Shown: positions 1,500-61,890 of the stretch, piece after piece
Position numbering within the stretch: the stretch's first letter is position 1
How the letters are laid out: every line of letters starts with the position of its first letter
Origin: Alphaproteobacteria bacterium
GTDB lineage: Bacteria; Pseudomonadota; Alphaproteobacteria; MPNO01; UBA830
Assembly (NCBI GenBank): GCA_964291215.2
Contig: OZ219790.1
Span: 1,568,001 to 1,632,000 of the forward strand
DNA: 64,000 bases
Reading direction: 5' to 3'
Notes under the pieces: generated by a model
The model's input: the letters and a program-made list of their open reading frames with translations, nothing else
Told to the model about the DNA's origin: nothing
The model's database searches: none
Program-made: the position numbers and the translations under genes

Positions 1500-3877
1500 G
1501 GTATTGTAACTTGATGTCTGGAAATTTGTCTGAGGTTTGCGCTTTGAGGCGTTTCACTGGGGGGGCTAGTAGTCTGGCATTATTGGATTGAGGAATATAG
1601 TGACTTCAGTTCCGTCCAGGCATCCTTCGTCGTGAAACGCCAGTCGACAGTGACATCGGCCGCATTGCGGCGCTCGACCCACGCCACGGTCTCCCGCAGC
1701 ATGGTGTCGCGGTCGGGAATGCGTCGCCGAAGGCATTGCCGCGACAGCGCACCGATCTCGATCTCGGCCATGTTGAGCCAGCTTCCGTGCTTCGGCGTGT
1801 AGCGAAACTCGAACCGCTTTCGCACCCGCCTCCTCGGGCTCGAAGGCTTCATACAGCGACTGTGCGTGTTCAGGTTGTCCAGCACGATCTTTCTGTCGGG
1901 GAAATGGTCGTCGGCAAGCTCCCGGATGAAGTGCGCCCGGTCCCGCGGCGGTCGGTGACTTTCACCGTGCGCCAGTTCTCGTTGGGCGCAAAGGCCATGA
2001 AGAGGTTGGCCGTACCGTTGCGCTCATATTCATAGTCGACCACCTCCGGCTGACCGGAGGACGGGGGGGGGGGGGGGGTCCTTCGTCTGCTGCCGGCTGG
2101 TCTCAGCACCTCGTCCCTGGCAAAGTCCCGCTGATAAGTGTCGAGCACATCCGCCGCTACGAACTGTGCGCTCCGGTGCGGTGGAATGCACCGGTTCAGC
2201 CACGGCTTGATCTCTTTTTTTTTGAGCGTCTTCCTGACCGTCTCTTCCGAAATGCGCTCGACGATCTCCACCAGACGGCCGGCGAGCAGCGTCCACAGCC
2301 CTCGGGCGGGGACGAGACCAGATTCGCCTCCATCGCCCCCGTTTCGGCCGACGGTTCACCTGCTCCTTGCGGCTGAGGGCTGCGTCCAGCCCCTCCAGGA
2401 CGCAGCGCTTGCGCAAACGCTCGACCGTCGCCGTGCCCAGCGCAATGTCGGCATCGACAAGCGCCCCCTCAGCATCAGGATTTGTGCCCGGCGCCAGGCA
2501 GCCCCGGTGCCGTCGACAATCGCCTTCAGATCCCGGCGCTCCTGCGCTGAAAGGGTCACCCGGTAGAGCTTCCTGCCCCGAGAGTTGGCCATATACGTTG
2601 CTCCTGTCATTGCGCCGCTCCCGTTGTCCGGACCTGCACATGGGGCTGCGGCTGCCTGCCTGTTCGGCATCTTGCCCGTGTGGATATTGGCACTGTCCAG
2701 ATTCCAACACAGGAATACTACCCACCAAAAACCATCAATACAATGCCGGTGGACTACTAGCCTCCAGTGAAACGCGGCGCCATCGTACTATCCCATGGAG
2801 CTGTAAACATTCATGGAGGAAGCGAATGGAGCTGCGACACACTACGACGATTGAGGCCGTTTTGGAACATCTGATCGCAAACGGAGCAACGGATCTGGGG
2901 CGGGTCTTTGGCCAGCTCTTCGAGCTTGCGATGCAAATCGAGCGCGAGCAGCACTTGAAAGCGGGCCACCGGACGCCGGAGCGACAGGGCCAACGGCTAC
3001 AAGCGGATCGACACCCCCACTGTTACCATTCAGGTGCCAAACGGTCACGGAGACGACCCGTCCCCAGTCGCTTGAACGCGGCCAGCGATCTTCTCGCGCC
3101 GTAGCCGAGATGTACATCAAGGGTGTTTCCACACGGCAGGATGTAATGCGCGAGTTCGGGAGCCTGTCCTCTTCTCAGGTCAGCCGGGCCACCAGGTTGC
3201 TCGATGAAGAACTCGCCGCGCAATCGGCCCCTGATGAAATACCTGGATACGCGCTACGAAAAAGCCCGCCATGACAGCGTTGTGCGCGATGTCGCAGTGC
3301 TCTCGGCCATCGGAATAGGGGCTGCAGGCACGTTCTGGGGCTCTCTGTGGCGCTCTCCGAGGCCGAGGTCCATTGGAGAGCTTTCCCGGAAAGCTTGCTA
3401 GCCCTGCATGGTACGACCTTCATCGTCTCGGATGCCGGGCTGAAAGCGGCACGACGCGCGGTGCTGGGCGCGACGACATGGCAGCGCTGCCAGTTCCACT
3501 TGGCACAAAACGCCGTGCACCCAACAACGACATCAGGAAACGTATTGGAAAACAGCTCAGAGCCACGCCTCCTCACTCCAAACCGCCGAGGCTGAACTGG
3601 CCGCCCTCGTGGCCAGCGACAAGCATCCAGGCTTCCTGGCTGGAAAACAATGCGGGGCTCGCTGTCTTCACCTTGCCCAATGCTCACCGCAAGCGCATGC
3701 GAACCTCGAACGGCATCAAGCGACCGATCCAGCAAGAGCTCAAGCGGCGCACCTCCAAAGTCAGGGTCTTTCCGAACCTCGCCTCGTTGGAGCGCCTCTC
3801 AACCGCAGTCCTCATCGACGAAAAATGGGAAACCGAAACCAAGATCAAATGGGAACAGCTCGACAGGTTGCGTAATC
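1500..3877 (+). mobile_element. IS256-family element, copy 1, degraded and interrupted by IS630
   Basis: Left end ggtattgtaacttgatgtctggaaatt; partly deleted right end caggttgcgtaatc; transposase fragments MELRHTTTIEAVLEHL, AEMYIKGVSTR, WQRCQFHL, RMRTSNG, VRVFPN; near-identical to 41842-43064. Confidence 0.9.
1570..2756 (-). mobile_element. IS630-family element, degraded
   Basis: Ends tagtctggcatt / aatgccggtggacta flanked by CTAG at 1566-1569 and 2757-2760; fragments DYEYERNGTANLF, LDNLNTH, YTPKHGSWLNMAEIE; A-tract frameshift site near 2215-2223. Confidence 0.9.
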
Positions 3878-3916
3878 GAAACATGCGCTTCTCCCATTGC
3901 GGTAGTGTCTCACTTT

Positions 3917-3964
3917 GACTTTCTTGGCGTATCATACCAAGATTTTCTTAGCGTATCATACCAA
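3917..3964. repeat. 24-bp tandem duplication at an IS630 end
   Basis: gactttcttggcgtatcataccaa followed by gattttcttagcgtatcataccaa (2 mismatches). Confidence 0.85.
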
Positions 3965-4888
3965 CGGTGCCGGTTCAGAACCCATGCGCTTATTTTCGGG
4001 TTCCGATGGAGGCGATGCGTGGGGGCCGCGAGACGAGATTGTTCCAAGCCTGGCAGCAGTGATCGAGTATGTCGTCGTAGTTCTGGAAGACGCGGTTCGA
4101 GAGCCAGTTGTCGCGCATGAACTGCCAGACATTCTCGACAGGATTGAGCTCGGGGGACCGGGGCGGGAGCGGCATGAGGGTTATGTTGTCGGGCACTTGG
4201 AGGGTCGAGGAGGTGTGCCATCCGGCCCGGTCGAGCATGACGAGGGCATGGGCTCCGGGTTCGACGGTGAGGGCGATCTCGGCGAGGTAGGCGTTGAGTG
4301 CCTCCGTGTTGGCGTGAGGCATGACGAGGCCGGCGGCCTTGCCCTTATGCGGGCATATGGCGCCGAAGATGTAGGCCGATGTCGTTCTCTGGTCCTTGGG
4401 CGCTGACGGTCGGGTGCCGCGTTTCGCCCATCGCCGGGTGATCTTGTTCTTCTGCCCGACGCGCGCTTCGTCCTGCCACCAGACTTCGACCTCGACGCCG
4501 TCACCGAGTGCAGCGCGGATTTCCCTCAGGCGGTCGGGGAAGTTTTTTTGAACGCCGCCAGCGCAGCTTCGTCCTGGGCATAGTGGCGCGGGCGCGCAGA
4601 GAGCTTGGCGTAGCCCATGCGACGCAACTCCTGTCCGACCGTCGTCACCCCCAGCGACACGCCGAACTGCTTGCTGAGCCATGCCGCCAAGTCGCAGCGC
4701 CGCCACCGCACCACGCCGTGGATCGCCGGGTCCGGACCACTCTCCACTACCGCCGCCAGTGCCGCGCGCTGTTCCTCGCTCAGTTTGTAAGCCGGACCCG
4801 GAGCCTTGCGGTTCACCAGGCCCGCCGGACCCTCCGCGTTGAAGCGCAGCACCCAGTCCCGAATGATCTGCAGCCCCACCCCCGCTAA
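3956..4888 (-). mobile_element. Second IS630-family element, 5'-truncated (winged-HTH plus DDE ORFs, A7 frameshift site)
   Basis: VWWQDEARVGQK, LDRAGWH, PPRSPELNPVENVWQ; upstream frame DWVLRFNAEGPAGL, HGVVRWR, KLSARPRH; TTCAAAAAAAC slippery site near 4543-4550. Confidence 0.9.
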
Positions 4889-4975
4889 CCCGAAGTTCCA
4901 GCGCCGATCAGGCGTATCATTATGAATATATTGGTGTTTGAGAGAACGGGAAGTCCATTTCTGGGCTTCCCGTTC
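4889..4975. mobile_element. IS terminal fragment (IS1634-like end) with hairpin
   Basis: Starts cccgaagttcc where it cuts the IS630; hairpin gaacgggaagtcca...tgggcttcccgttc. Confidence 0.35.
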
Positions 4976-5175
4976 GCTTTCGCTACGGCCCTCCGGTTTG
5001 CTCGCCGCTCTGGCTGACCGAACCGGCTGGGCACTGCGTCCCAGCCAGCCCACAACGGCTTTTACGTCCCGGCTCGCTGGTCCAGGGTTGCCCCTGAACC
5101 AATGCTACGGTGCCAAACTGAGAATTGCGCCGGCGGGACTTACACCCGCAAGTACAGCAGCTGAACTCGCTGCAA
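4976..5175 (-). ncRNA. Group II intron 5' (domain I) fragment
   Basis: Minus strand reads ttgcagcgagttcagctgctgtacttgcgggtgtaagtcccgccggcgcaattctcagtttggcaccgtagc...ggcgagcaaaccggagggccgtagcgaa, resembling GUGCAGCG-type bacterial group II intron 5' ends; no RT ORF or domains V/VI seen. Confidence 0.65.
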
Positions 5176-6449
5176 ATCCGATCGATCCATTCGTCCGCCC
5201 ACCCCTCCGGCTGCGGCCGGCGCAGTCCGGAAAGTCGCGCCGACAATGCGCCTGGCAACAGCACAGGATGAAAGGGCCACAGGCGCGCCAGCTTCTTGCA
5301 GGCGCCGTAGCGGTCGCAGACCGGATACATGGGGCCGACGACATCCGCGAATAGCTTCGCCGCGACCTCGGCGCTGCGCGAGGGAGAGAACCGCGTCACG
5401 GCCGACCGATGTCCGGAGCCAGGCGCGACTTCCGGACCTCCCTCAGGGCCCGGATGCATCGGCATGGCGCAGACCCCGGTGCGCGAGGACCGCGTCCCGA
5501 AGCGGCAGGGGCAGCATCCGGCTCGTGGAGCCGGCCAGCGTTCCCGGCGAAAGCCCTTGGACGCGGCGCAAGGGCCGCATGCACGCGCTCGTGCAGCACA
5601 TGCGTCCACACCCGAATGCGGTGCCGGGAAACAGCCGCCACCTCGCTCGGCGAACCGGGGCAGTCACAGCCCCGGCGGACAATCCGCCGCTTTTGATCTC
5701 GATGATCCTGGTGCGAACCGTTGGCAACGCAGCACGAGCAGGCGTCCTCCGCCACCTCCAGCCGCTCCTCCACCTCCTCGAGCGCCGGCCCGCGGCGTAC
5801 GGCCATGGCCAGAAGCGCCGCGCTTCGATGACGCCCGCTGCCTCTTCTCGCTCTTGCGCCCGTACGACCTGTTCGAACGAAGCTTGTCGTTCTCCGCCTC
5901 GAGCGCCCCGACCCTTCAGAACCTTCATCGCGGTCTTCAGGCCGGCATTCTCCATGCGCAGCGATACCACCGTCGACCGCTTCCGCGCATCAACGCCGGC
6001 CTCGGCAAGAAGCCCGCCCGGACGCGCAACCTTCTGCTTCAGCGCAAGAGACTTCTTCGCCGTCCGCCGAACTTCCTTGACCTCTGCACGGGCAGCTGCC
6101 AGCTTCTCGCGATTGCTCTCGAAAATCGCCTTCAGGGAATTCGCGCGGCTGCGCCCCTCCACCTCCTGCAAGCGCAGCTCCTCACGGCGCCCCTCCGCAG
6201 CCGCCGTGCGGGCTTCCGCAGCCTCGGCTCGAATACGCTCGCGATCGTACAGGGATTTCCAGGTGACCGCATCACAACACGACGACTGCGGCACGTCGCC
6301 AGCGGCATCCGATGATGACACGAAATCCTCGATGCACATGACCGTGCACGACCTGACAGCACCGCCAAAAAAAATTACCGGCCCCCTTCTCCGAATCACC
6401 AAAATAAACCTCAGCGCAGATCGTCATCACCGCATGAACGAACGCTTAC
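5176..6449 (-). mobile_element. IS66-family element type A, 5' part, degraded
   Basis: Terminus GTAAGCGTTCGTTCATGCGGTGA (minus strand, from 6449); homologous to about 35875-37125. Confidence 0.85.
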
Positions 6450-6710
6450 TGTTGTACCCTCGTGTCGCTACGATCGCGCAATGTGATCTGGAGCGGGGAC
6501 AAGCGTACACACGGCCAACCGGAAAAGAAAAAGGCCCGACAATCCTCCGCAAACGACACGCCCATGTCCGAATGCGCCCCCGCGCACAGCCACGGTCAAG
6601 CGGGTGAAACCTGACGATCGGTTGCGTAGGATGATCGCGGCATGTCCGGGGATTGTCACATGCGTGTCAATCAGCGAGCATCACGCATCGCTTCGATCGC
6701 CCAAGAGGCC

Positions 6711-15253: not shown

Positions 15254-15312
15254 CAGGACTTTCCCACGCTGTGGTTGATGTTTTGAATGATCGCTGAACG
15301 GGACACAAATTT
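15254..15312. repeat. Fragment shared with the IS1634-like remnant at 61617-61674
   Basis: caggactttcccacgctgtggttgatgttt(t)gaatga(t/c)cgctgaacggg(a/g)cacaaattt at both sites. Confidence 0.8.
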
Positions 15313-15683
15313 CAGATGTCCTGACCTCGAGTCCGATTTTCCCAAACAGAGTGATGCTTCCGGGCCGGGTTTGCGTGCGTTGTCTGGCAGTTCGTAGATC
15401 ATGCGGAGGCCGGTTCCGGGGAAGACCGTGCGCATCCGGTTGAGTTCGTCGAGCAGTCCGGCGATGTCGGCGTCGCGCGCGTTGCTGGCGGTGCCAAGGA
15501 TGCGCACCCGCAGGACGCCGTTCTCCGGGTCGGGGATGATGTCGGCGTCCGACTGGAACAATTCGGCGAGAGGGCGTCGCGGACGCTACTTTGCGCCCTG
15601 CGCCGCGGCGACGGCGGACATCATCCGGGTCTCGGCGCGGTAGGCGATCATACGAACGATGTCGAGCAGAAGCCTCTCGCTGG

Positions 15684-26549: not shown

Positions 26550-28049
26550 GTATCTACTCACCCCTAGTTGAGTTCTGATTGGTCGTAGTGCTCGTTGATG
26601 ATGTCTGCGGCTTTTCCGTCGAGGGCGATCTGGGTTGCGACGTGTGGGTTGTAGCCGAGTGCGGCCATGGAGGTGAGGTAGCTTGAGCCCCGGCACCATG
26701 CTTTTGCGTGGAGCGGAAGCATCCGGACACCTTGACCTTTGCCATCCTGATCTTCTGTTCTCCGGCATTGTTGGTGAAGCTGACGTCGGGGTTGTCTATG
26801 AAGCGCAGGTTTTCGTGTTTCACGAGACGTTCGTGCAGGTTGTGCGCGTTTGCGATGCGTTTTCCTTTCGTCGGGATGTCGGGCAGTTCCTTGGCGCCCT
26901 GATGGTGCGGTAGCGCTTGCGCCCGGCGTCGTTCAGGGTCTTGGATGTGCTCTTGTTGACCTTGTGGCAGACCTCGCGGAACAGGCTCTTCATCAGTCGC
27001 GCGGTAGCCTCGACGACAAAGGTCAGTTCGCGCAGCAGGTGGCTGCCGCACAACTGGTGGCTACACTGCCATGTACGAGGCCCAGGACGCCCTTGTAGCA
27101 CGGGCCGATCTCTTGCCCGCGCTTGCGGTGCGGGAACTTGCACGTCAGGGTCCCACGACATGAAGCCACTTACTGTTGATCCGAAATCGTCGACATCGGG
27201 CGTTGCAGGAGGTGCGCCACGGCGGCCTCCTCCCATGACGCATCGTGAAAGCATAGCCGAGGCAGGTTGCCTCGGAGAGCTTGATGCCGGAGATCGCCTG
27301 CACGAACGCGACGGCACGGCGCAGGGACAGCATCTGGGCGACCAGCAGGTTGATGACGAGGGCCTGGATGCCGTACTGCACGGGATGTTGTCGGGGAACC
27401 GGCCCTTGGTTCGGGCCTTGCACTTCGGGCATTCCTTGATCTCGGCGCGGCGCTCGACGACCTCGAACACGATGTCGTGCGGCGCTCCCGATCGACGGGG
27501 CCGTCGGCGCCGCAGGCGTCGCAGGCCGCGACCGTCTCCTCGACGATGATCTTGCGCAGGTTGTCGCCCATCTGCTGGTTCGGCTTCGGGCCGTTGCTCC
27601 CGGCACGCTCTTGTCCGTCTGTGACGGCGGCAGACCGGAGTTCCGGCTCGTGCGTGGTCTTCTCCAGAAGGACGACGATGAGGATGTCGAGCAGGATGAC
27701 GAGGACGCGGATCACGGCCTCTTCCGCCACCTTGCCGGCCGCACGCAGCGCCGCGGTCTTGGCCGCTTCGAACTCCTCGCGCGCCGCCCGTCGCCATCAC
27801 CCGGCCTTGTGCTTCATCAGCGCGCCGCCTCCGAGATGCGTTTCCACATACAGATCATGCGGGGGCTGGAGCCCCGGAAGCAGCTGGCACAGCCCGCTCG
27901 TCGCCTTCGATCCAAAGTAGCCCACTGGCGGTCCCCGTCGTTCTCGATTACCACCACTAAACGAATCGGCCTGCAGTGTCAAATCTCCACGAAAACCCGT
28001 TTGTTACTCTACCCCGACATCAAGCCGGAACCAGGGGGTGAGCAGTTAC
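26550..28049 (-). mobile_element. IS66-family type B, copy A, degraded
   Basis: Ends gtatctactcacccc / ggggtgagcagttac; HQLCGSHLLREL, FTNNAGEQKIRMAKVK; no TSD. Confidence 0.9.
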
Positions 28050-29447: not shown

Positions 29448-30062
29448 ATGAAACTCATCGGCAGGTTCATGTCGCCGTTCACTCGCCGGGTGGCGGTATC
29501 CGCCCGCACGCTCGGCTTGGAATTCGAACATGTCGACCTGTCGACGATGACCGATATCGACGAAATTCGCAGATACAACCCCATGGGGCGGGTGCCGACC
29601 GTCGTGCTCGAAGACGGAACCGTCCTTGTCGACAGCGCCGCGATCGTCGACTGGCTTGACGAGCAGGTCGAGCCGGAGCGCCGGCTGGTGCCCGTGTCCG
29701 GCGCCGCCAGGCGGGACGTCCTGCAGCTTGTCTCGTGGGCGACAGGGGCCGGCGACAAGGCGGTGGTTGTCCATTACGAGCTTACCCGCCGACCCGAAGA
29801 CAAGATCTTCCTGCCCGCGGTCGAAAGCAATGTCGATCAGATCAGATCCGCCTTTGGGATGCTGGAGAAGGCGGCGGTGGACGGCGGCTGGCTGGTCGGC
29901 GATCGCATGACGCAGGCTGACATCACGGTGGTGATCTTCCAGGAATTCTGCGAAATCGTGCTTGCGGACCGCTTCGACCGCGGCGACTATCCCGCGCTCG
30001 GCGCTCTTTGCGCACGCGCCCATGGCGAAAATCCCGCCTTTGCCGGGACCTCTCCGCGATGA
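29448..30062 (+). CDS. Glutathione S-transferase family protein
   Basis: SPFTRRV, NPMGRVPT, LVDSAAI, TQADI. Confidence 0.9.
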   Translation: MKLIGRFMSPFTRRVAVSARTLGLEFEHVDLSTMTDIDEIRRYNPMGRVPTVVLEDGTVLVDSAAIVDWLDEQVEPERRLVPVSGAARRDVLQLVSWATGAGDKAVVVHYELTRRPEDKIFLPAVESNVDQIRSAFGMLEKAAVDGGWLVGDRMTQADITVVIFQEFCEIVLADRFDRGDYPALGALCARAHGENPAFAGTSPR

Positions 30063-30937: not shown

Positions 30938-31043
30938 CGTGCTGCGCGGACCGGCAAGAAACCACTGCAGGCGCTGACGGAAACCGCGCGGTGTCCTGAT
31001 CAGAATTGCGTCCGCACCCTGCCATTGGAGCGACGGATCGGCC

Positions 31044-34361: not shown

Positions 34362-34885
34362 TCAGCTCGCGACCAGTTCGTCGATCACGGCCGTGTACAT
34401 GTCCCTGGCCTCGGCGCCGAAACAGGCGAACACGACCTTCTCGACGGTACTGCCGCTTTCGAAATGGCTCGCGGTTTCGGCCACCGCGACGCGCGTTGCC
34501 CGGTCGAGAGGGTAGTCATAGACACCCGCGCTGATCGCCGGAAACGCGATGGAGGCCACGCCCGTGTCCTCCGCGACCTCGAAACAGCGGCGATAGCAGC
34601 ATGCCAGCAGACCGGGTTCGCCGCGGTTGCCGCTCTGCCATACCGGGCCGACGGTGTGGATCACGATACGGGCGGGAAGGCGATAGGCTCCGGTAGCCTT
34701 GGCGTCGCCGGTGTCGCAGCCGCCGAGCGCGCGGCATTCCTCAAGGAGACGAGGTCCCGCCATGCGATGAATTGCGCCGTCGACGCCGCCTCCGCCCAGG
34801 AGGGCGTTGTTGGCCGCGTTCACGACGGCATCGACTGCGAGCGTCGTGATGTCGCCCTCGAAGATCTCGATCCGTTCTCTTATAG
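34362..34885 (-). pseudogene. Macro-domain O-acetyl-ADP-ribose deacetylase (YmdB-like), start cut by IS66
   Basis: [44 protein letters not shown]; IS66 end at 34886 removes the start. Confidence 0.8.
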
Positions 34886-37125
34886 GTAAGCGTTCGTTCG
34901 TGCGGTGAGGTGTTGTTGTTTTCGTCCGTTTGACGGGCTTTTGTCAGGGAGTTCCAGCGTCACCCGGAGCGGTTTCGTGCGCCGGGATGCGCGGTGAGGG
35001 GCACTGGCGCCATGCCGTGTTTTCCGCATTGGTTGCGGTTTTGTCCCGGCGCTGCGGAGGAGGAGCTGAGCGCCATCCTGTGCCGGTTGCAGGGTTCAGA
35101 GGGTCCGCTTCCAGTCCTTGCGGAGCGGGCCAGATGTCCTTCTTCGGCTTCTGTCATGTCGGTCGTGGCGGCCGCTGGTTGTTCCGACGCGGCCGGCAGA
35201 CGCCGCGGCGCGGGACCAGGGTCTCGCAGGGCACGGGCGTGGTGTTGCAGCGCGCGGTCCATGCGGCGGTCGAGAAGCAGCGGCTCGCCGCATGGTAGCG
35301 CATCTGCGGCGCCGACCAGGCGCGTGTATCCGAGGTCGTGTCAGCGGGCGGGGCTCGTCGAGAATCTTCGGGGCGGCGGTGTCCGACGTGATCAGCTTCG
35401 GGGGGGCTGGCAGCGGCAGAAGGCGCGGGCGATGGGGTTCGCTCCGTGATCGTCGCAGCAGCCGCATCTCCGCGACCATGAAGTCGTGCCCTCGACCTCA
35501 CGGCGGCGCTGCGAATCTCCGCCGCCTCTCCGGGCTCACGGCAACCAGGGCGACAGATCGCCGGGCGGCCGTTCTCCGCGCAGGCGCCAGCGCAGAACGT
35601 CGAGGCCGCTCCTCGCGGCCGTGTACATGACAGCCGTCCATGCTGTCGGAACCGAAGCCGGGCTTCCGCCCGGGCCCCTGACAGCCCTTTCCCCGAAATT
35701 GTTGTCCATGGTCGACGAACACGCGATGGTTGAGCGCAGCGGCCTGCCTTCCGGCGCCGCTTTCGGAAGCCTCGGCGCTTCCGCAAACAGCGACCGCAGT
35801 CTCCGGCGCCGCCTGCGCGGCCTCGAACGCCGCCGGAAGCAAGGCAGTCGAGCCGTGTTCAGGCGGCAGATCTCCGCGATCGATCCATTCCCACCCCTCC
35901 AGCTGCAGCCGGCGCAGTCCGGAAAGTCGCGCCGACAATGCGCCCGGCAACAGCACAGGATGATGAAGGACCACAGGCGCGCCAGCTTCTTGCAGGCGCC
36001 GTAGCGGTCGCAGACATGGGGGCGTCCGCAAACAGCTTCGCCGCGACCTCGGCGCTGCGCGAGGGAGAGGACCGCGTCACGGCTGACCGATGTCCGGAGC
36101 CAGGCGCGACTTCCGGACCTCCCTCAGGGCCCGGATGCATCGGCATGGCGCAGACCCCGGTGCGCGAGGATCGCGTCCCGAAACGGCTCGAACAGGGGCA
36201 GCATCCGGCTCGCTGGCCGGCGTTCCCGGCGAAAGCCCCTGGACGCGGCGCAAGGGCCGCATGCACGCGCTCGTGCAGCACATGCGTCCACACCCGAATG
36301 CGGTGCCGGGAAACAGCCGCCACCGGTGAACCGGGGCAGTCACAGCCCCGGCGGACAATCCGCCGCTTTTGATCTCGATGATCCTGGTGCGAACCGTTGG
36401 CAACGCAGCACGAGCAGGCGTCCTCCGCCACCTTCAGCCGCTCCTCCACCTCCTCGAGCGCCGGCCGCGGCCATGTGCCGCGCTGCTGGCCGCGCTTCGA
36501 TGACGCCCGCTGCCTCTTCTCGCTCTTGCGTCCGTACATCGACGACCTGTTCAAACGAAGCTTGTCGTTCTCCGCCTCGAGCGCCCCGACCCTTCAGAAC
36601 CTTCATCGCGGTCTTCAGGCCGGCATTCTCCATGCACAGCGACACTACCGTCGACCGCTTCCGCGCGCCGGCCTCGGCAAGAAGCCCGCCCGGACGCGCA
36701 ACCTCCTGCTTCAGCGCAAGAGACTGCTTCGCCGTCCGCCGAACTTCCCTGACCTCCGCACGGGCAGCTGACAGCTTCTCGCGATTGCTCTCGAAAATCG
36801 CCTTCAGGGAATTCGTGCGGCTGCGCTCCTCCACCTCCTGCATGCGCAGCTCCTCGCAGCGACCCTCCGCAGCCGCCGTGCGGGCTTCCGCCGCCTCGGC
36901 TCGAATACGCTCGCGATCGTACAGGGACTTCCAGGTGACCGAATCACGACACGACGACTGCAGCATGTCGCCAGCGGCGTCCGCACCCGATGATGGCATG
37001 AAATCCTCAATGCACATGACCATGCACGACCTGATGGCACCGTCAAAAAATTTACGGCCCCCTTCTCCGAATCACCAAAACAAATCTCGGCGCAGATCGT
37101 CATCACCGCATGAACGAACGCTTAC
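34886..37125 (-). mobile_element. IS66-family type A, both ends present, degraded
   Basis: Inverted ends gtaagcgttcgttcgtgcggtga / tcaccgcatgaacgaacgcttac; flanks not duplicated. Confidence 0.88.
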
Positions 37126-37365
37126 TGCGGAGCGTTCCCACCTCCACCGCTCGGCCCTGCCGTCGTGACAAAATCTTGCCCTGAAACGGGCGATTGTCAC
37201 GAAAACTCGTTTTCGCCGCTGCCTCGCGACCGCACAACCGTGCTAAATCAATGACTTGGATTCGCCATACGAGAACTGCACCCTACCAGCATGAGTTCAC
37301 CTTGATATCACCTAAACCCCAAAATATCATGGACCAATTACATGATTTAGCCGATGAAGTTCCGT

Positions 37366-41567: not shown

Positions 41568-41841
41568 CGGCCCGACATGCCGTTCGCCGCGGCAACAACC
41601 GGAGACGCGATCGCCGCGTTCGAGCGCGACGGCGTAGCGCTGGTCCGGCGAGCCTTCACCGACCGGTGGCTCGGCATGCTCGACGAGGCCGTGGACGCAG
41701 CGCTCGCAACGCCGAGCCCGCTGTCGCGCGAATACGCACCCACAGGCCGCGGCCACTTCTTTGCCGACCATCACATGAGTCAGAACAGCGAGGACTTCCA
41801 GCAGTTCATCGAGGAGTCGCCGGCAGCCGCGATTCCGCCGG

Positions 41842-43064
41842 GGTACTGTAACTTGATGTCTGGAAATTTGTCTGAGGTTTGCGCTTTGAGGCGTTTCACT
41901 GGGGGGCTAGCCCCCCCAGTGAAACGCGGCGCCATCGTGCTATCCCATGGAGTTGTAAAACCTTCATGGAGGAAGCGAATGGACCTGCGACACACTACGA
42001 CGATTGAGGCCGTTTTGGAACATCTGATCGCAAACGGAGCAACGGATCTGGGGCGGGTCTTTGGCCAGCTCTTCGAGCTTGCGATGCATATCGAGCGCGA
42101 GCAGTACTTGAAAGCGGGCCACCGGACACCGGAGCGACAGGGCTATGCCAACGGCTACAAACGGATCGACACCCCCACTGTTGCCGTTCAGGTGCCAAAG
42201 ACGGCCGGTCACGGGGACGACCCCCCAGTCGCTTGAACGCGGCCAGCGATCTTCTCGCGCCGTAGCCGAGATGTACATCAAGGGTGTTTCCACACGGCAG
42301 GATGTAATGCGCGAGTTCGGGAGCCTGTCCTCTTCTCAGGTCAGCCGGGCCACCAGGTTGCTCGATGAAGAACTCGCCGCGCAACCGGCCCCTGATGAAA
42401 TACCTGGATGCGCGCTACGAAAAAGCCCGCCATGACGGCGTTGTGCGCGATGTCGCAGTGCTCTCGGCCATCGGAATAGGGGCTGCAGGCACGTTCTGGG
42501 GCTCTCTGTGGCGCTCTCCGAGGCCGAGGTCCATTGGAGAGCCTTCCTGGAAAGCTTGCTAGCCCTGCATGGTACGACCTTCATCGTCTCGGATGCCGGG
42601 CTGAAAGCGGCACGACGCGCGGTGCTGGGCGCGGCGACATGGCAGCGCTGCCAGTTCCACCTGGCGCAAAACGCCGTGCACCGAACAACGACATCAGGAA
42701 ACGTATTGGAAAACAGCTCAGAGCCACGCCTCCTCACTCCAAACCGCCGAGGCTGAACTGGGCGCCCTCGTGGCCAGCGACAAGCATCCAGGCTTCCTGG
42801 CTGGAAAACAATGCGGGGCTCGCTGTCTTCACCTTGCCCGATGCTCACCACAAGCGTATGCGAACCTCGAACGGCATCGAGCGACCGATCCAGCAAGAGC
42901 TCAAGCGGCGCATCTCCAAAGTCAGGGTCTTTCCGAACCTCGCCTCGTTGGAGCGCCTCTCAACCGCGGTCCTCATCGACGAAAAATGGGAAACCGAAAC
43001 CAAGATCAAATGGGAACAGCTCGATCAGCTTCACGACAATTTCCAGACATCAGGTTGCGTAATC
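41842..43064 (+). mobile_element. IS256-family element, copy 2, degraded
   Basis: TIRs ggtactgtaacttgatgtctggaaatt / aatttccagacatcaggttgcgtaatc; only an imperfect flank duplication. Confidence 0.92.
41891..41927. repeat. Palindrome in the IS256 5' region
   Basis: gcgtttcactgggggg-CTAG-cccccccagtgaaacgc. Confidence 0.9.
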
Positions 43065-43641
43065 ATCGCCGCCACGCTGCTCCGGGCAAACCGGCTCTGG
43101 TTGGTCGACGAGCACCTGCTGGTGAAGGAGCCGGGAACCGATGTCCCGACGCACTGGCATCACGACCTCCCCTACTACGACATTTCCCGGGACGGCTTCG
43201 CGTCCCTCTGGATCCCGCTCGACATGGTCACCGCAACATCGGGTGCGATGAAATTCGTGAAGGGATCGCACCGGTGGAACAAGTTGTTCAGGCCGATAGG
43301 GATCGGCACCGGACTTGAGGCCGAGGGCGCCGACAGGTTCGACGGCCCGGCGCCGGAAATCGACGCCAGTCCCGGCGACTACGATGTCGAGATCTTCAAA
43401 ATGGACCGCGGCGACGCGCTGTTCTTCCAGACGGCGACGCTGCACGCCGCCAAGCCCAACCGGACCGCCGCCGCGCACTATCGCTGCGCTATGCCAGCGA
43501 GGCTGCGCGCTGGCAGCCTCGCACCTACGTTCCATCGCGGCCCGACAAGCCCGACCTTGTCCCCGGCTCCGTTCTCGGCGATAACCTCTATCCGGTGGTT
43601 TGGCCGCGCAGGAACGCGGCGCAGCCTGACGAGGTCTGACG

Positions 43642-44073: not shown

Positions 44074-44077
44074 CGGA

Positions 44078-44266: not shown

Positions 44267-44481
44267 GGGCTCGCCTTCCATCTCCCCGCAAACCGGACCC
44301 CGCGCCAGCCTCCGCATGGAGGCGGAGTACACGGTTCCACGCTGCCGCAGAGCATATGGGCTGCGGACGCGGAACTCAAGGCGGGTCCGGAATTGGTGGA
44401 GAGATCGGCAGCAATGGTCTAAAACACGCCGTCGCCGCCCCTCGCCGGGCGGCACGCGCTAGACGGAGCGGAGCGACGGGA

Positions 44482-46536: not shown

Positions 46537-46553
46537 GCCCAAGGTTCCAACAT

Positions 46554-47000
46554 CAGATGTCCTGACCTCGGGTCCGATTTTTCCAATCAGAGTGATGCTT
46601 CCGGGCCGGGTTTGCGTGCGTTGTCTGGCAGTTCGTAGATCATGCGGAGGCCGGTTCCGGGGAAGACCGTGCGCATCCGGTTGAGTTCGTCGAGCAGTCC
46701 GGCGATGTCAGCGTCGCGCGCGTTGCTGGCGGTGCCGAGGATGCGCACCCGCAGGACGCCGTTCTCCGGGTCGGGGATGATGTCGACGTCCGACTGGAAC
46801 AGTTCGGCGAGAGGGCGTCGCGAACGCTGCTTTGCGCCCTGCGCCGCGGCGACGGCGGACATCATCCGGGTCTCGGCGCGGTAGGCGATCATGCGAACGA
46901 TGTCGAGCAGCAGCCTCTCGCTAGAGGGCAGGGCGTCGAGCCTCTCGTCGAGCTCGGCCACCGTGACATGCTTCGGGGTTTCTGAACGCCGGACCTTGAC
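46554..47000 (-). mobile_element. Right-end fragment of the CAGA-ended element
   Basis: cagatgtcctgacctc at 46554; homologous to 15313-15960 but without the 183-bp MITE. Confidence 0.85.
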
Positions 47001-47814
47001 CCAAGTTGGCACTTTTTGCGACCTGGAATTTTTATCACGTACCCCGTTCCATAGTGAAGTGCAACACATGATGGGCTGTGACCATGTGTTTTAAGACGCA
47101 TGATGTTGCGGAGCGGTAGCGGCGAGAGTTCCTGTACAAGATGAAGGGAGCTTGTTCATGTCCAAAGGCTACCGTCACCTACGAAGAGCGATGCCAGATT
47201 GAGGCGTTACAGAAAAGCGGTCTTTCACAAGGTGCGCTTGCTCGGCAGCTGGGCCGATCAACAATTTTTCGGGAGATCAAGCGTAACACCGGGGGACGGG
47301 GTTACCGTCACAAGCAGGCGCAAAGGATGGCAGAAACGCAGGGCAGCCTCGTCTGTTTCCTGGCGGTTGACGCCTCGAGTTGAAGCTCAGAAAAAGCTGC
47401 GGGAGGGCCCCGAGCAGCGGCCGTTTTCGACTGGAAGGCCGTGAACGGATCCATGATCGCCGAAGATCGGAGAGCCGGGGGTGTCTTGTGGAAGAAGCTT
47501 CGGCGGCGCGGCAAGAAGCCGAACTGGAAGGGCGGATACCATTCCGGCCGGGTCCTGTGGACATTTCCGAGCGCCCTGCGGAGGCAAAGGAACGGGTCGG
47601 CGACTGGGAGCCATCATCGGCGAAGCTCACAGTGGAGCTGTCGTGTCGCTCGTACCACGAAATACACCTTGCTGGGTGGACAGAAAGACACGGTCGGTTC
47701 GGTCATGATCCGCCTGCTCGGCTCTGGTGCGCTATTGGTCCACACAATCACGTCAGACAACGGAGTTCGCAGACCACAGGCGTGTCGCACTTGACGCAGA
47801 TTTCTTCTTCGCTT

Positions 47815-49374
47815 GTAACTGCTCACCCCCCTGGTTCCGGCTTGATGTCGGGGTAGAGCAACGAACGGGTTTTCGTGGAGATTTGACACTGCAGGCCGAT
47901 TCGCTTAGTGGTGGTCATCGAGAACGACGGGGACCGCCAGTGGGCTACTTTGGATCGAAGGCGACGAGCGGGCTGTGCCAGCTGCTTCCGGGGCTCCAGC
48001 CCCCGCATGATCTGTATGTGGAAACGCATCTCGGAAGCGGCGCGTTGATGAAGCGCAAGGCCGGGTGATGGCGACGGGCGGCGCGCGAGGAGTTCGAAGC
48101 GGCCAAGACCGCGGCGCTGCGTGCGGCCGGCAAGGTGCCGAAAGATGTCGATGCCGTGATCCGCGTCTTCGTCATCCTGCTCGATATCCTCATCGTCGTC
48201 CTTCTGGAGAAGACCACGCACGAGCCGGAACTCCGGTCTGCTGCCGTCACAGACGGACAAGAGCGTGCCGGGAGCAACGGCAAGGGCCCGAAGCCGAACC
48301 GGCGGATGGGCGACAACCTGCGCAAGACCATCGTCGAGGAGACGGTCGCGGCCTGCGACGCCTGCGGCGCTGGCATCGACGGCCCCATCGATCGGGAGCG
48401 CCGCACGACATCGTGTTCGAGGTCGTCGAGCGCCGCGCCGAGATCAAGGAATGCCCGAAGTGCAAGGGCCGGTTCCCCGAAAACATCCCGTGCAGTACGG
48501 CATCGGCATCCAGGCCCTCGTTATCAACCTGCTGGTCGCCCAGATGCTGTCCCTGCGCCGTGCCGTCGCGCTCATGCAGGCGATCTCCGGCATCAAGCTC
48601 TCCGAGGCAACCTGCCTCGGCTATGCTTTCACGATGTGTCATGGAAGGAGGCCGCCGTGGCGCACTTCCTGCAACGCCCGATGTCGACGATTTCGGATCA
48701 ACGGCAAGTGGCTCCATGTCGTCACCGACGGAACCCTGACGTGTAAGTTCCCGCACCGCAAGCGCGGCCGGGAGGCAAGAGATCGGCCCGTGCTACAAGG
48801 GCGTTCTGACTGCTGGGCCTCGTACATGGGCTATGACCAGTGTAGCCACCAGCTGTGCGGTAGCCACCTGCTGCGCGAACTGACCTTTGTCGTCGAGGCT
48901 ACCGCGCGACTGATGAAGAGCCTGCTCCGCGAGATCTGCCACAAGGTCAACAAGAGCGCATCCAAAACCCTGAACGAGGCCGACCTCCGGGCCGTGCGCA
49001 AGCGCTACCGTACCATCAGGGTGCCAGGGAACTGCCCGACATCCCGCCGAAAGGAAAACGTGGACGCAAGTCCGACGCGCACAACCTGCACGAACGTCTC
49101 GTGAAACACGAAAACCTGCGCTTCACAGACGACCCCGATGTCAGCTTCACCAACAATGCCGGAGAACAGAAGATCAGGATGGCAAAGCTCAAGGTGTCCG
49201 GATGCTTCCGCTCCACGCGAAAGCATGGTGCCGGGGCTCAAGCTACCTCACCTCCATGGCGGCACTCGGCTACAACCCACTCGTCGCCACCCAGATCGCC
49301 CTCGACGGAAAAGCCGCAGACATCATCAACGAGCACTACGACCAATCAGAACCCAATTAGGGGTGAGTAGATAC
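47815..49374 (+). mobile_element. IS66-family type B, copy B
   Basis: Ends gtaactgctcacccc / ggggtgagtagatac; perfect 8-bp TSD cttcgctt. Confidence 0.93.
47940..48068 (+). pseudogene. DNA adenine methyltransferase N-terminal fragment inside IS66 type B (also 27797-27925 and 51118-51246, minus strand)
   Basis: VGYFGSKATSGLCQ...PPHDLYVETHLG(G/S)GALMKRK resembles D12/Dam motifs X and I. Confidence 0.6.
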
Positions 49375-49871
49375 CTTCGCTTTTCCATTCCCGGGAACGC
49401 GGCTTGAATGAGCACACCAACGGCCTGGTGCGGGAGTACTTCCCGAAGGGCACGGACTTTCGCGCGACATGCAACGAAGATGTTCAGAAGGTGCAGGATC
49501 GGCTCAACACTCGGAAAGTCATGGGATCGCCGACGGAGGTAATCTTGAAGTGAAACCGCCCTGACCATCTGCGTTCCGCAGCCGCAACGTGCAGCAGGGT
49601 CCATGCCGCGCGACGGCGAAATAGTGGCTTGAAGCCGACAAAGGCGTTGCATAAGCTCGATGTTGAAGGAACTGAAGCTGTTCCCAGGCGGAATCGAGAG
49701 GGGCAGAGGGGAAAAATTTGCACAACATCCGGCCCTCATCTCCGTTCGGGCTACGCCCTCACTGCGATGAGGGCCGGATGTTGCACTTCAGACTGGAAGT
49801 GGGGATTTAAAAATCTCCTCGCACCAACCCGCGCCCCCGCAACACCCAGATGCTGTCTTGAAAAACCAAAC

Positions 49872-51370
49872 GTATCTACTCACCCCTAGTTGGGTTCTGA
49901 TTGGCCATAGTGCTCGTTGATGATGTCTGCGGCTTTTCCGTCGAGGGCGATCTGGGTGGCGACGAGTGGGTTGTAGCCGAGTGCCGCCATGGAGGTGAGG
50001 TAGCTTGGCACCATGCTTTTGCGTGGAGCGGAAGCATCCGGACACCTTGAGCTTGACCTTTGCCATCCTGATCTTCTGTTCTCCAGCATTGTTGGTGAAG
50101 CTGACGTCGGGGTTGTCTATGAAGCGCAGGTTTTCGTGTTTCACGAGACGTTCGTGCAGGTTGTGCGCGTCGGACTTGCGTCCATGTTTTCCTTTCGTCG
50201 GGATATCGGGCAGTTCCCTGGCGCCCTGATGGTGCGGTAGCGCTTGCGCCCGGCGTCGTTCAGGGTCTTGGATGCGCTCTTGTTGACCTTGTGGCAGGGA
50301 GCAGGCTCTTCATAAGTCGCGCGGTAGCCTCGACGACAAAGGTCAGTTCGCGCAGCAGGTGGCTACCGCACAGCTGGTGGCTACACTGGCCCATGTACGA
50401 GGCCCAGGACGCCCTTGTAGCACGGGCCGATCTCTTGCCCGCGCTTGCGGTGCGGGAACTTGCACGTCAGGGTCCCACGACATGAAGCCACTTGCTGTTG
50501 ATCCGGTCTCGTCGACATCGGGCGTTGCAGGAGGTGCGCCACGGCGGCCTCCTCCCATGACGCATCGTGAAAGCATAGCCGAGGCCTCGGAGAGCTTGAT
50601 GCCGGAGATCGCCTGCACGAGCGCGACGGCGCAGGGACAGCATCTGGGCGACCAGCAGGTTGATGACGAGGGCCTGAATGCCGTACTGCACGGGATGTTG
50701 TCGGGGAACCGGCCCTTGGTCCGGGCCTTGCACTTCGGGCATTCCTTGATCTCGGCGCGGCGCTCGACAACCTCGAACACGATGTCATAGAGGACGCGGC
50801 GCTCCTGATCGACGGGGCCGTCGATGTCGGCGCCGCAGGCGTCGCAGGCCGCGACCGTTTCCTCGACGATGGTCTTGCGCAGGTTGTCGCCCATCTGCCG
50901 GTTCGGCTTCGGGCCCTTGCCGTTGCTTCCGGCACGCTCTTGTCCGTCTGTGACGGCGGCAGACCGGAGTTCCGGCTCGTGCGTGGTCTTCTCCAGAAGG
51001 ACGACGATGAGGATGTCGAGCAGGAGGACGCGGATCACGGCCTCTTCCGCCACCTTGCCGGCAGCGCCGCGGTCTTGGCCGCTTCGAACTCCTCGCGCGC
51101 CGCGTTGACCGTCGCCATCACCCGGCCTTGCGCTTCATCAGCGCGCCGCCTCCGAGATGCGTTTCCACATACAGATCATGCGGGGGCTGGAGCCCCGGAA
51201 GCAGCTGGCACAGCCCGCTCGTCGCCTTCGATCCAAAGTAGCCCACTGGCGGTCCCCGTCGTTCTCGATGACCACCACTAAGCGAATCGGCATGCAGTGT
51301 CAAATCTCCACGAAAACCCGTTCGTTGCTCTACCCCGACATCAAGCCGAAACCAGGGGGTGAGCAGTTAC
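49872..51370 (-). mobile_element. IS66-family type B, copy C
   Basis: Same ends; perfect 8-bp TSD aaccaaac. Confidence 0.93.
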
Positions 51371-51423
51371 AACCAAACAAAATTTAGCGTGAGATCGTTC
51401 TGTCGTCCGCCAGCGACCGCATG

Positions 51424-56376: not shown

Positions 56377-56762
56377 CGGAAGACCCCATGGTCAGGCAAT
56401 CGGGATGGAAGAGCGGGCAGCCAAACCGCGCCCGCCTCCGTCGGCTGACGCCGGCCACACCGCGAACCGGTGCCAACGATGCCAGATGGTAATGGCGAAG
56501 AAAAGAGATCGGATCGCAGCCTCCGCTTGAGCTCCGTGCAGACCGGTTTCAAGGTCCGAACCGTTCGTCATCCCACCTCGAAAACGCAGAGCCAGACCGA
56601 ATCGATACCGTCTTCGCCGGCGAGGCCAGCCGATCGCTGGAGTTTGCCGACGCCCGTCGCAGGCGGGCCGCACGCGCAACATATTCGTTCGCGACACCGG
56701 ACCGGCGGCCTAGACCACGACCCGGAACCACTTGCACGAACTCGGGACATCCAGATAATAAT

Positions 56763-59189: not shown

Positions 59190-59209
59190 CTGAAGTTTCC
59201 CGTTGCGTT

Positions 59210-59246
59210 TCGAGGGCGGGACCCTGTCCCGCTCTCGACTTTTTTT
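59210..59246 (+). terminator. Rho-independent terminator
   Basis: tcgagggcggga-ccctg-tcccgctctcga followed by T7. Confidence 0.8.
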
Positions 59247-59400
59247 GCGGCTGACGGTTGTGTCCATGCGTCCGCAGTCCGGGACGGAAAGGCGCCCCGA
59301 CGCGCTGTAGAATCGGGCGCATTGATACGTACCATCGCCTCGCTTCGGCGAACGTCTTCCAGACAGGCGAGAAGTTGAACGGTTTTATTTCGGGGGAGAC

Positions 59401-59739
59401 ATGGCGATTCCGCTTTGGGCGATCGCGCTCGACTATCTCCTAGGCATGGTCATGTGGACGCTGATCGGGCGGTCGGCGATGAATATATTCCTGCCGGTCA
59501 CGTCAGACTTCTTTTTCATGAAGGCGTTCGTGAAGCTGACCGATCCGGTACTGCGAGTGTTCAGACCCGTCACTCCCGGTTTTCTGCTCGACGCCATCAT
59601 CCCGCTCTACGTAGCTTGGTTCTTCTACATGATCCGGTTCTACGCCATGCCCGGACTACTCGGATACTCGATCATGGGCATGTTGTCCTTCCCGCTTGAG
59701 AGCGAGATAGCGGCGGTGCTCTACCGTACCTTCAACTAG
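59401..59739 (+). CDS. YggT-like small membrane protein
   Basis: Hydrophobic 112 aa with KLTDPVLR; RBS GGGGAG. Confidence 0.7.
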   Translation: MAIPLWAIALDYLLGMVMWTLIGRSAMNIFLPVTSDFFFMKAFVKLTDPVLRVFRPVTPGFLLDAIIPLYVAWFFYMIRFYAMPGLLGYSIMGMLSFPLESEIAAVLYRTFN

Positions 59740-59743
59740 CCGG

Positions 59744-61343
59744 CAGGCTGCGAACCCCGTTTGGCACAAGGGGATTTCCGGCGACAGCGGCACGGCGAAA
59801 CGCCTTCGGCAGTCTGTCACGGCCCTTTCCATCGCCGGTCAGGAATAGATCACATCGCGTCCGGACCAAGTGTTTCCCACGCTGCATTCAATTTTGCTGT
59901 CTTCTGCTGTCTGGAGGTTTCACGGCGTGTCGGGTTTTCTGGCTTCGGGGCCATCCGCGGTCGTCGCCGGCGGCGTTATCGGCGCGTGGGCGGGTTGTTT
60001 TCGGGATGTGGGCGGCGTCCGGGAATCGGCCGGACACCATTGGCGCTCAGGGCTGCGACGGCTTTCCGGCGGTCGAGCCGCCGCCGTGTTTCGGCGAGGC
60101 TCTCGCGTCGGTTGGCGAAGATCACCGCGAGCGCGATGTTGTCGAGGCTGGCGCGGTTTGCGGGTCAGGCAGGCGTCCTCGCCGAAGACGCAGTCTCGAT
60201 GGTTCATGTTTTCCACGGCCCGCGGCTGCAGCAGTTCCTCTGGCGACGCGTGTTGCGCATCGAGCGAGCATCCATGTTTCTTGGCAAGGTTTTTGCGGGT
60301 GTCTGCGGTGATTTTTTCTGTGGTTGTCCACAAGCGGTGCAGTCGTTGCCGCTCGCCGCGCCGCTGGCGCTCTTTCCCGGCGGCTCGCGGTAGCATGCGG
60401 GCGATCTGCCGGGGTAGTTGATCAGGTCCTCGAGCGGCACGCGCTGCTCGAGGCGGGCCTTGCCTCCTTGAAGCGGCCATCCGTCTCCCGGTCGATGCCG
60501 TCGAAGGTTTCGGGCGCCCTTGACCGGGACGACATAGTCTGCGCCGCAGCGCCGGGTGATCAGCGTCGCCGGCGTCGTGCGGGTGATCACCTTGCCGCGG
60601 ACATCGGTGCGCTCGAGGAGGTGGCCGCCAGCTCGCCGTCGTCGAAGTTCAACAGCGCGAAGGGTGCGCCGGAGGCGTGACCACGGTCTCGTGGTGGCCG
60701 CCGCGGATGCGCTTGCCGTCGGCGGCAAGCGCCCGGGCGAGCCCGCGGCCGAGCACATCCTCGAGCGCCTCGGGATCGATCGACCGGACGACCCGGTGGA
60801 GGGTCGCCCCGGAGGGCGGCTCGCGCAGCTCCGTCCTCGGGTTCCGCCGATGGCCTCGTCCCGGGACAGCGACCGCGCAAACTGCGCAGCTGCCTTTCAT
60901 GTTCGCAAGCTCGGCGAGAACGTGAGCACACCGTGTGCTTCCTGCGTGGCGGAAGTCCTCGATCGCCGCCAGCTCGTCGTGCAGCGAACGCATCACCTCG
61001 GAACCCCGGGGAGCGAGGAGGCAGGCGGCGCCACCGCCTGCGACAGCAGCCGTCGCGCCGCACAACGAAAATCTCCTTGCCATGGGGGTCGGTGCAGCGC
61101 CCGCGGGCAAACCCCTTGGCACGCCAGCCCGCCGCCTTGTGCCCGCAAAATGCTCCGGATTGCAGAACGTCTCCGCCACAACCCAGGACGATCTTACGCT
61201 AAATTCTGTTCGATTTTTCAAGGTAGTACCTGGGTTTTGCGGGGGCGCGGGTTGGTGCGGGAATGTCGGTTCACAAGTACATCGCGTCCCGTCCGATTCA
61301 CGTCGCAGCTCCGGAAAGGTCTGTCCGAGGTTCGCGAAGCCTG
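59744..61343 (-). mobile_element. ISAs1-family element remnant
   Basis: IEDFR, PPSGATLHRVVRSIDPEALE, ALAADGKRIRG, DYVVPVKG; candidate ends caggctgcgaacc / ggttcgcgaagcctg. Confidence 0.72.
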
Positions 61344-61616
61344 AGGAGCGTCCGCTGCGTTGATGGACGACTATCTCGGGTTTCGTCGTCTGGCAGGGCT
61401 GCACCATATTGCGTCCTTCAGGGGGCAGTGGTCTGGCGGCGTGACGGGGCCTTCAAGTGCCGCGACCGGTGGCTGGAAGCCGGAGCAGCAGTGGCTTGAT
61501 CTGACAACACGCGACTGCTTGCGGCGCCGGGAACGTTTCCGAACCTTGCCTCCTTCTTTCTTGCGACGCGGCGGCTGGCCGACGACTGGGCCTGCGGCCA
61601 CCAGATGGTTGTGGCG

Positions 61617-61890
61617 CAGGACTTTCCCACGCTGTGGTTGATGTTTGAATGACCGCTGAACGGGGCACAAATTTCCGCATTCTTGACAGGTTTTCCGGCT
61701 GTGGCGACCCGTGGACAGCCCTGCGGCCAGAAAACCCGGCAGGCTGCGCAACTTCTCTCCATAAGCAGTCGGCAAGATCGAATGCAGCGTGGGAAAGTCC
61801 TGGAGCGTGGGACAGGCTCATGCGGTTCCGCATCAGGGTCGCGAGATCGTCGAGCAGCGTGTAGAAGCTGTGCACCGAGAACCGGCGGCA
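61617..61890 (-). mobile_element. IS1634-like transposase 3' remnant
   Basis: VHSFYTLLDDLATLMRNR...AAFDL. Confidence 0.6.

Follow-up and report, generated by a model that had tools for sequence, protein, structure and literature searches.

Why do the mobile elements of one alphaproteobacterial genome differ from one another by gaps of nearly always the same few sizes? The question was raised by a window of 64,000 nt, C1:1568001–1632000 of the genome studied here (G000). An earlier note, made from its letters alone, had described indels almost all of 5–7 nt in its insertion sequence (IS) copies, and had proposed either a defence resembling repeat-induced point mutation (RIP) that deletes instead of mutating or an unusual mutation spectrum of the lineage. 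We find a real, lineage-restricted process that deletes 5–7 nt, together with an indel-only exchange between repeat copies; allele sharing suggests that the deletions spread between copies. The loss of 5–7-nt pieces, copied between repeats, likely cripples whole families at once.

G000 comprises 6.15 Mb in two contigs (64% GC, 99% complete, one 16S gene, read as alphaproteobacterial), and ~34% of it is repeats. It was compared with four congeners, G001, G002, G003 and G004 (96% (test region), 77%, 71% and 79% identical to G000, respectively), and with assemblies of sequencing runs (X1–X4 and X6) taken as contigs, not as long reads. X6, labelled as a sponge metagenome, contains a relative ~94% alike G000, and X4, a marine metagenome, contains one ~95% alike. 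X1 may be the source sample of G000 itself.

Repeats carry a dense load of 5–7-nt deletions

Across seven pairs of window copies with <10% substitution, 47 of 70 gaps are 5–7 nt long (8, 21 and 18 gaps of 5, 6 and 7 nt), as are 47 of the 55 gaps of at least 4 nt. Fifteen gaps of 1–3 nt make the 'almost all' of the first description a slight overstatement. Several of the example deletions given there were recovered as events: those of IS256 as reverse complements, and for IS66B tcaac, gtcgat, gtcctct and caccgac directly, with gtgcggc and aagggc in shifted registers. The estimate of ~20 gaps per 1.05 kb of IS256 also stands, the two window copies carrying 21 and 19 deletions.

We scored deletion alleles genome-wide in 23 families (length at least 800 nt, at least eight copies; four of them partly redundant), which include IS66, IS256, IS630 and a group II intron. 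The reference for each family, or union, is a consensus with segments absent from the majority put back; relative to it, true insertions are nearly gone (0–0.3 per copy). The size class seen in the window is narrow, not broad, at the scale of the genome: 797 of 1,295 distinct deletion alleles are of 5–7 nt (175, 395 and 227), with 26 of 4 nt and 48 of 8 nt. Of those of 10–14 nt, 65 of 109 decompose into two small events.

Per-copy load was taken from 671 copies of 20 families (820 kb), three redundant families having been removed. These hold 14,893 deletions of 4–30 nt and 16,224 substitutions, or 18.2 and 19.8 per kb; 11% of length has been lost, and 648/671 copies (97%) contain a frameshifting deletion. 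Set against intact G001 homologues, nearly all gaps are short in G000 (for example, all 15 gaps over 925 nt and all 17 over 627 nt), and almost all are thus deletions in G000. The group II intron family is affected too, its positions coinciding with reverse-transcriptase matches, as is a 512-nt miniature inverted-repeat transposable element (MITE; 6 nt in 57 of 108 gaps). Among the 23 families, one young family of ten copies has zero such deletions. Deletion sites are evenly distributed along elements, with no clustering, and the junctions of earlier deletions do not form the centres of later ones; in three families, load tracked neither private single-nucleotide polymorphisms (SNPs) nor strand.

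The deletions are not an invention of the assembly. In X1, three long contigs reproduce 20 kb of single-copy DNA containing 11 deletion sites with zero differences, and in X2 and X3 the long contigs are free of 5–7-nt gaps relative to G000 over the part of that 20 kb that they cover. In the IS contigs of X1–X3, 6-nt indels are seen, with both indel states present.

The copy at C1:94846–96865 is nearly undeleted when set against C2:13034–14822 (over 1.8 kb the two differ by 34 gaps but by just 42 substitutions) and is possibly a recent arrival or a master copy. Many MITE-like insertions of 183–200 nt, in two groups, distinguish G000 from G001 and have 8–10-bp target duplications (for example, C2:1071205, C2:726428 and C1:1914800).

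Single-copy DNA shows the same size class at a low rate

Single-copy DNA was compared over 0.80 Mb aligned, out of 1.14 Mb of G001 sequence (G001 total, ~5 Mb). Intergenic DNA of the two genomes is 12% diverged. Over 81.5 kb of it, pieces of 1–9 nt absent from G000 number 181, 39, 18, 9, 13, 33, 20, 12 and 11, respectively, and those absent from G001 number 144, 24, 14, 3, 3, 2, 1, 5 and 3. At 5–7 nt there are 66 G000-short gaps against 6 G001-short (~0.8 per kb), and at 1 nt the two are near even. Single-copy DNA, which a RIP-like process should spare, thus has the same size peak.

Host genes do stay open, as had been said (670 of 703 compared), but they are struck all the same: the 670 intact genes contain 36 six-nt gaps short in G000 against 2 in reverse, and three-nt gaps run 10 against 5. 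A 5- or 7-nt deletion is the lone cause of breakage in zero genes, and 11 events fall within the 35 kb of the 33 disrupted genes. From the asymmetry of gaps between G000 and G001 and from the counts in intact genes, we conclude that the process acts genome-wide on the G000 branch at ~1 per kb, with no excess in G001, and that in genes selection passes only in-frame events. The polarity of single-copy gaps rests on this asymmetry and on the repeats; at one of the listed G001 sites, X4, possibly close to G001, carries the long allele. Deletion density in repeats is ~20-fold above that in single-copy DNA.

Deletion alleles are shared between copies

Alleles of 5–7 nt are rarely private. Only 7 of 433 are singletons, a count lowered by a filter that excludes alleles within 8 nt of a common one, and 273 have a frequency of at least 0.3. 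For alleles of 1–3 nt, 36 of 67 are singletons and 4 occur in at least 30% of copies. The ratio of deletion to SNP alleles moves from 10:2,045 among clean singletons to 322:340 among alleles found in at least 11 copies, and the copies of lowest load have mostly zero private deletions. Of 163 deletions in four families whose SNPs define deep clades, 60 vary within both clades, against 79 of 478 SNPs. Diagnostic SNPs 3–10 nt from a deletion do not move along with it: they carry the foreign allele in 12 of 522 cases for deleted copies and in 14 of 248 for undeleted ones. Even pairs at <0.2% SNP distance differ in 139 of 1,006 site comparisons.

Sharing falls with divergence, from 0.71 through 0.64, 0.40, 0.14 and 0.14 to 0.06 as divergence goes from <5% to >22%. 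At 8–12% divergence, it is 12 of 76 where a mismatch lies within 1 nt of the deletion, 34 of 121 with one at 2–3 nt and 54 of 89 where 4–5 nt are matched. Above 12%, sharing is found mostly where each flank has at least 13 matched nt (12 of 23, against 43 of 482 with shorter matches). The dependence on flanks looks like pairing, not recognition, because the flanks carry little motif information.

Load also rises with copy number. Among sampled, non-independent pairs at 3–6% divergence (up to 260 per class), 5–7-nt gaps per kb are 0.38, 1.7, 3.5, 4.7, 6.5, 7.6, 7.1 and 9.6 in classes from 2 to >128 copies, and gaps of 1–2 nt are flat at 1.1–2.6. Elements of two or three copies, compared with an outgroup, have 0 deletions in 1.1 kb and 3–4 in 3.1 kb. 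Sequence hotspots do not explain the excess in repeats: top-scoring motif sites are struck at 7%, against 3–4% elsewhere, and allele frequency is similar.

The deleted tract has a weak two-fold symmetric signature

The deleted tract shows a weak two-fold symmetric preference: read from its 5′ end, each strand starts with not-C followed by pyrimidines. The preference is palindromic and centred on pyrimidine–purine (YR), of the form R-Y...R-Y. TCGA occurs 66 times in deleted tracts against 23 expected, GTC/GAC are enriched too, and no clear hairpin was found in the tract. The two half-sites are statistically independent, a result that suits a dimeric cutter, or one-strand excision occurring twice in succession, rather than a one-strand lesion. 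Because motif score increases a little with allele frequency (rho 0.14, p 0.004) and single-copy events lack the preference, the motif may act at the spreading step.

Junction microhomology of 1–5 nt had been described as frequent. It is enriched, but only modestly, being absent in 216 of 654 shared alleles (33%; chance ~50%) and reaching at least 3 nt in ~20% (chance 6–9%). Microhomology end joining and slippage were rejected, 33% of G000 junctions and 97 of 196 in G002 having none. Two kinds of cutter were set aside as well: a restriction enzyme cutting at a distance (no 3–4-mer is enriched within 40 nt outside the deleted tract) and NucS/EndoMS cutting at differences between copies (the shared-SNP fraction is 0.06 at the deletion centre and 0.05–0.10 elsewhere).

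Distribution among congeners and candidate genes

G002 shares the process. Its 128 copy pairs (1–12% divergence, 146 kb, 30 selected loci) contain 441, 566 and 100 gaps of 5, 6 and 7 nt; 1-nt gaps number 103, and those of 4 and 8 nt 12 each. The end preference there is A-T-C, and about half of the 196 events lack microhomology. Among four G002 copies, 21 of 38 deletions are shared versus 35 of 130 SNPs. This genome also has eight near-identical open IS66 copies, including L166 (C1:57021–60872), ~8% from heavily deleted relatives. In G003 there are zero indels among six IS630 copies (15 pairs, 243 SNPs), and in G004 one 1-nt indel among four (6 pairs, 257 SNPs); decayed IS66 pieces of G004 have a few 7- and 9-nt gaps. 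The absence of the process from G003 and G004 is provisional, since it is drawn from single families.

Of the genes suggested at the outset, none of those searched for (Ku, prokaryotic Argonaute (pAgo), or loss of MutS/MutL or AddA; no search was aimed at LigD) explains the deletions. Ku is in 0 of 5 genus genomes, and MutS, MutL and RecA are intact in G000. Guide-directed cutting was rejected, as G000 has no Piwi (pAgo) match, 0 of 111 CRISPR spacers match a repeat and the sites are evenly spread. CRISPR arrays at C1:574247–581180 (96 repeats, all exact) and C2:2068487–2069543 (17 repeats) adjoin cas1 genes. Searches of G000 by tblastn with Escherichia coli proteins found open frames for PolA, UvrD, RecQ, RecJ, XseA, RuvABC, RecG and XthA, and further for MutM, RnhA, DnaQ, UvrA, SSB and an AddA-sized helicase-nuclease; the same kind of query gave no match in G000 for SbcC, SbcD, SbcB, RecC or MutH. 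RNase HII and a 644-aa GIY-YIG protein of UvrC size are open frames there too.

Short deletions made by TOP1 at ribonucleotides require a type IB topoisomerase and the loss of RNase HII. This source was rejected, as G000 has no PF01028 (TopIB) match and its RNase HII is open; RecT was also not found in G000. NucS (PF01939) has no match in G000, which is 99% complete. In G002 only, L002 (C1:2513338–2513547) has a partial NucS_C match in a 424-aa frame, and L002 frames have no G000 match. Cas1, Mrr_cat, HNH and reverse transcriptase were discarded as causes, none separating G000 and G002 from the other congeners. A screen for atypical genes returned 848 scattered candidates.

Proposed templated spread and its alternatives

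We lean, with moderate confidence, towards low-rate 5–7-nt deletion throughout the genome combined with homology-templated, indel-only copying between repeat copies, probably biased to the shorter allele. The deletions would be made by a putative activity of two-fold symmetry that either cuts and joins or excises loops, measuring off 6 ± 1 nt and weakly preferring R-Y...R-Y; the effect is observed and the enzyme presumed from it. Copies would then pair, as allele sharing suggests, with SNPs and 1–3-nt loops staying resident, plausibly through intact MutS/MutL, and loops of at least 5 nt would escape and be resolved in a patch of few bases. Exchange would run both ways, a net bias to the shorter allele lifting deletion frequency. 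Such a bias is implied by the load and the frequency spectrum: a neutral two-way process, we infer, could neither raise load 20-fold over the single-copy rate nor empty the rare-allele class. The outcome would be family-wide inactivation of mobile elements, with large families at ~18 deletions per kb.

Several observations pull the other way. SNPs cross clades too (16%), so part of the exchange is ordinary recombination, and the effect of copy number is entangled with that of residence time. Of the tree models, the time-constant one favours symmetric gain and loss. A model with an onset time has its best loss:gain at ~0.3 and rejects pure gain by 101 log units, and data simulated as symmetric also yield 0.3 in it. 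Between near relatives, apparent losses (75/231) and gains (70/303) are equally frequent, a comparison confounded by tree shape. Single-copy events (n = 93) show no end preference and more microhomology, and different enzymes may thus underlie origin and spread. Among the four G002 copies, 17 of 38 deletions are private, a higher share than in G000. The phase of each copy comes from a single assembly, the compared runs being contigs, and the union reference contains a few spurious short insertions that slightly inflate loads.

More speculatively, and less probably, the deletions could reflect a host-encoded drive in which a nuclease-ligase would excise 5–7-nt loops from paired copies, small deletions sweeping in proportion to copy number. 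It would amount to a guide-free defence against the expansion of IS, MITE and intron families, with the elements' own copies as templates, patchy within the genus and with cut preferences particular to each lineage.

In fungi, RIP mutates repeats from C to T, each copy independently, striking duplicates and sparing single-copy DNA. The RIP-like defence first proposed for the window agrees with the ~20-fold excess in repeats, with the rise of load with copy number, with the narrow size class and with a weak two-fold symmetric preference of the kind that a cut-and-join enzyme leaves; degradation is homology-dependent, far above that of single-copy DNA, and falls on any type of element. But these are deletions and not C-to-T changes, in a bacterium; alleles are shared and mobile, not independent per copy, two-copy duplicates are barely struck (0.38 per kb), and single-copy DNA takes low-rate damage with the same size peak. 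The outcome is RIP-like, but the defining tests of RIP failed. We consider it rather unlikely that pairing itself triggers many new 5–7-nt deletions, perhaps mostly in the past, with unbiased indel-only shuffling later. Beyond the excess and its rise with copy number, direct tests show two-way exchange without clear bias, and private deletions are more numerous in G002, both in its favour; yet private alleles are nearly absent in G000, elements of two or three copies are almost clean even against the outgroup, single-copy DNA shares the size peak, and the burst would have to have ended in all families.

A lineage mutation spectrum, the other initial proposal, accounts for the origin of the deletions but not for their excess in repeats. 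In its plain form (a high rate everywhere, host DNA cleaned by selection, and sharing through transposition of damaged copies plus ordinary recombination) it seems improbable to us, even though the size peak is genome-wide, damaged copies still move (a site is empty in X2 and X3) and 23–47% of SNP pairs also fail four-gamete tests. Intergenic DNA, 12% diverged and tolerant of many 1-nt gaps, has only 0.8 events per kb, disrupted genes are little struck and elements of low copy number have hardly any; were the alleles simply inherited, deletions and SNPs would have equal frequency spectra and be linked, and neither is seen. A DDE transposase or integrase of a mobile element, making staggered 5–7-nt cuts without insertion in element-rich genomes, is very unlikely. 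Its appeal is the palindromic R-Y...R-Y preference with independent half-sites: integrase targets, in the part of PMC4422553 cited here, are weak palindromes whose YR centre is flexible (RYXRY where the stagger is 5 bp). Both affected genomes, G000 and G002, are also large, 6.1-Mb members of the genus. Integration duplicates its target, however, and here the tract is lost and nothing is inserted. Target duplications of 5–7 bp occur in 0 of 10 clustered families, several of which gave no usable boundaries, and of 43 insertion junctions just 3 have a 6–7-nt overlap. The damage is alike in IS, MITE and intron families, and such an enzyme would cover the origin of deletions and not the sharing of alleles. 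We place at the very bottom the idea that indel alleles were carried from copy to copy during assembly or polishing, which would have created the sharing pattern, though not the deletions. Polishing with mis-mapped reads could give indel-only transfer that needs matched flanks, but 1-nt indels and 2,045 SNPs remain private, X1 matches the single-copy DNA as described above, IS contigs of X1–X3 contain both indel states, and the IS sets of G003 and G004 show nothing of the kind.

Relation to known systems

Templated spread would resemble loop conversion that escapes mismatch repair. Two of its expectations agree with what is seen: MutS, MutL and RecA are open, and indels of at least 5 nt spread when 1–3-nt indels and SNPs do not. 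Bacterial mismatch repair is efficient on loops of up to ~4 nt, and a large-loop repair with unidentified proteins exists in E. coli, according to the part of PMC2504288 cited here. Poor handling of loops >~4 nt by MutS/MutL fits the lower size edge, but in the cited parts of PMC2504288 and PMC8918686 no 7-nt ceiling, sequence preference, source of new deletions or family-wide spread is described. The deletional bias of bacterial pseudogenes shares the excess of deletions, some microhomology and independence from Ku; its sizes, as given in the relevant part of PMC6054270, follow a power law with an excess of multiples of three, unlike the several-fold elevation of each of 5, 6 and 7 nt above 2–4 and 8 nt found here. 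In transformation, recombination favours the shorter allele and erodes accessory DNA (PMC5850275, in part), much like the bias posited here, but there kb-sized islands with long homologous arms are involved and here 5–7-nt loops without co-conversion.

If the spread is templated, it would give genomes a new way of keeping IS expansions in check. It would also be a case in nature of editing that transfers indels alone, with no co-conversion, and would offer a way in to the proteins of bacterial loop repair. We know of no copy-number-dependent degradation of repeats in bacteria, and full-text literature searches, mostly outside subscription papers, returned nothing on it. The responsible gene could be sought by comparison, with two congeners affected and a 96%-identical sister and two others without sign. 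Ages and trees of IS copies drawn from indels would mislead in such genomes.

Features of the window

Table 1 Repeat copies and single-copy deletion sites in the window (positions within the 64,000 nt; deletions and substitutions relative to the union reference unless stated)
Feature	Position	Strand	Details
IS630-family copy (55 in family)	1566..2760	-	DDE_3 match on open reading frame (ORF) 1583-1885; 19 deletions, 48 substitutions
IS256-family copy 1 (77 in family)	2761..3863	+	Transposase_mut match; 21 deletions, 25 substitutions in scored part 2868-3839
Partial IS66-like 'A' element	5179..6451		10 of 15 gaps against the 35.9-37.1 kb copy are 5-7 nt
IS66-family 'B' copy 1 (159 in family)	26550..28049	-	31 deletions, 21 substitutions in scored part
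IS66-like 'A' element, ~2.2 kb	34882..37127		24 deletions in scored part 35340-36405
IS256-family copy 2	41832..43064	+	19 deletions; site empty in X2, X3, X6 (joint 41831-43065)
Single-copy site, 6 nt of G001 absent from G000	44319..44320		C1:1612319
IS66-family 'B' copy 2	47805..49387	+	DDE_Tnp_IS66 match; 25 deletions, 35 substitutions
IS66-family 'B' copy 3	49859..51380	-	32 deletions, 26 substitutions
Single-copy site, 6 nt of G001 absent from G000	56607..56608		C1:1624607
Repeat-family copy (24 copies), no Pfam match on its ORFs	60335..61179		20 deletions, 16 substitutions

IS66-family 'B' elements have 8-bp target duplications. The end of the partial 'A' copy resembles the IS66B end, its family name being without Pfam confirmation. 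Crippled IS256 copies are probably still mobilized in trans, because the site of the second window copy, with its 19 deletions, is empty in X2 and X3. These two assemblies differ by ~0.5% from G000 near that site. Open 422-aa IS256 frames number two in G000, at C1:885113 and C2:3220224.

Two tRNAs are the only Rfam matches in the window. A 370-nt repeat pair (15312–15681 and 46553–46922) differs by 3% substitution and zero indels, its second member overlapping a Transposase_29 ORF. The IS630-type element at 3990–5053 has open helix-turn-helix and DDE frames and heavily deleted neighbours. Tandem paralogues of metallo-beta-lactamase fold at 30008–31922 are 78% identical, with gaps of only 1–3 nt.

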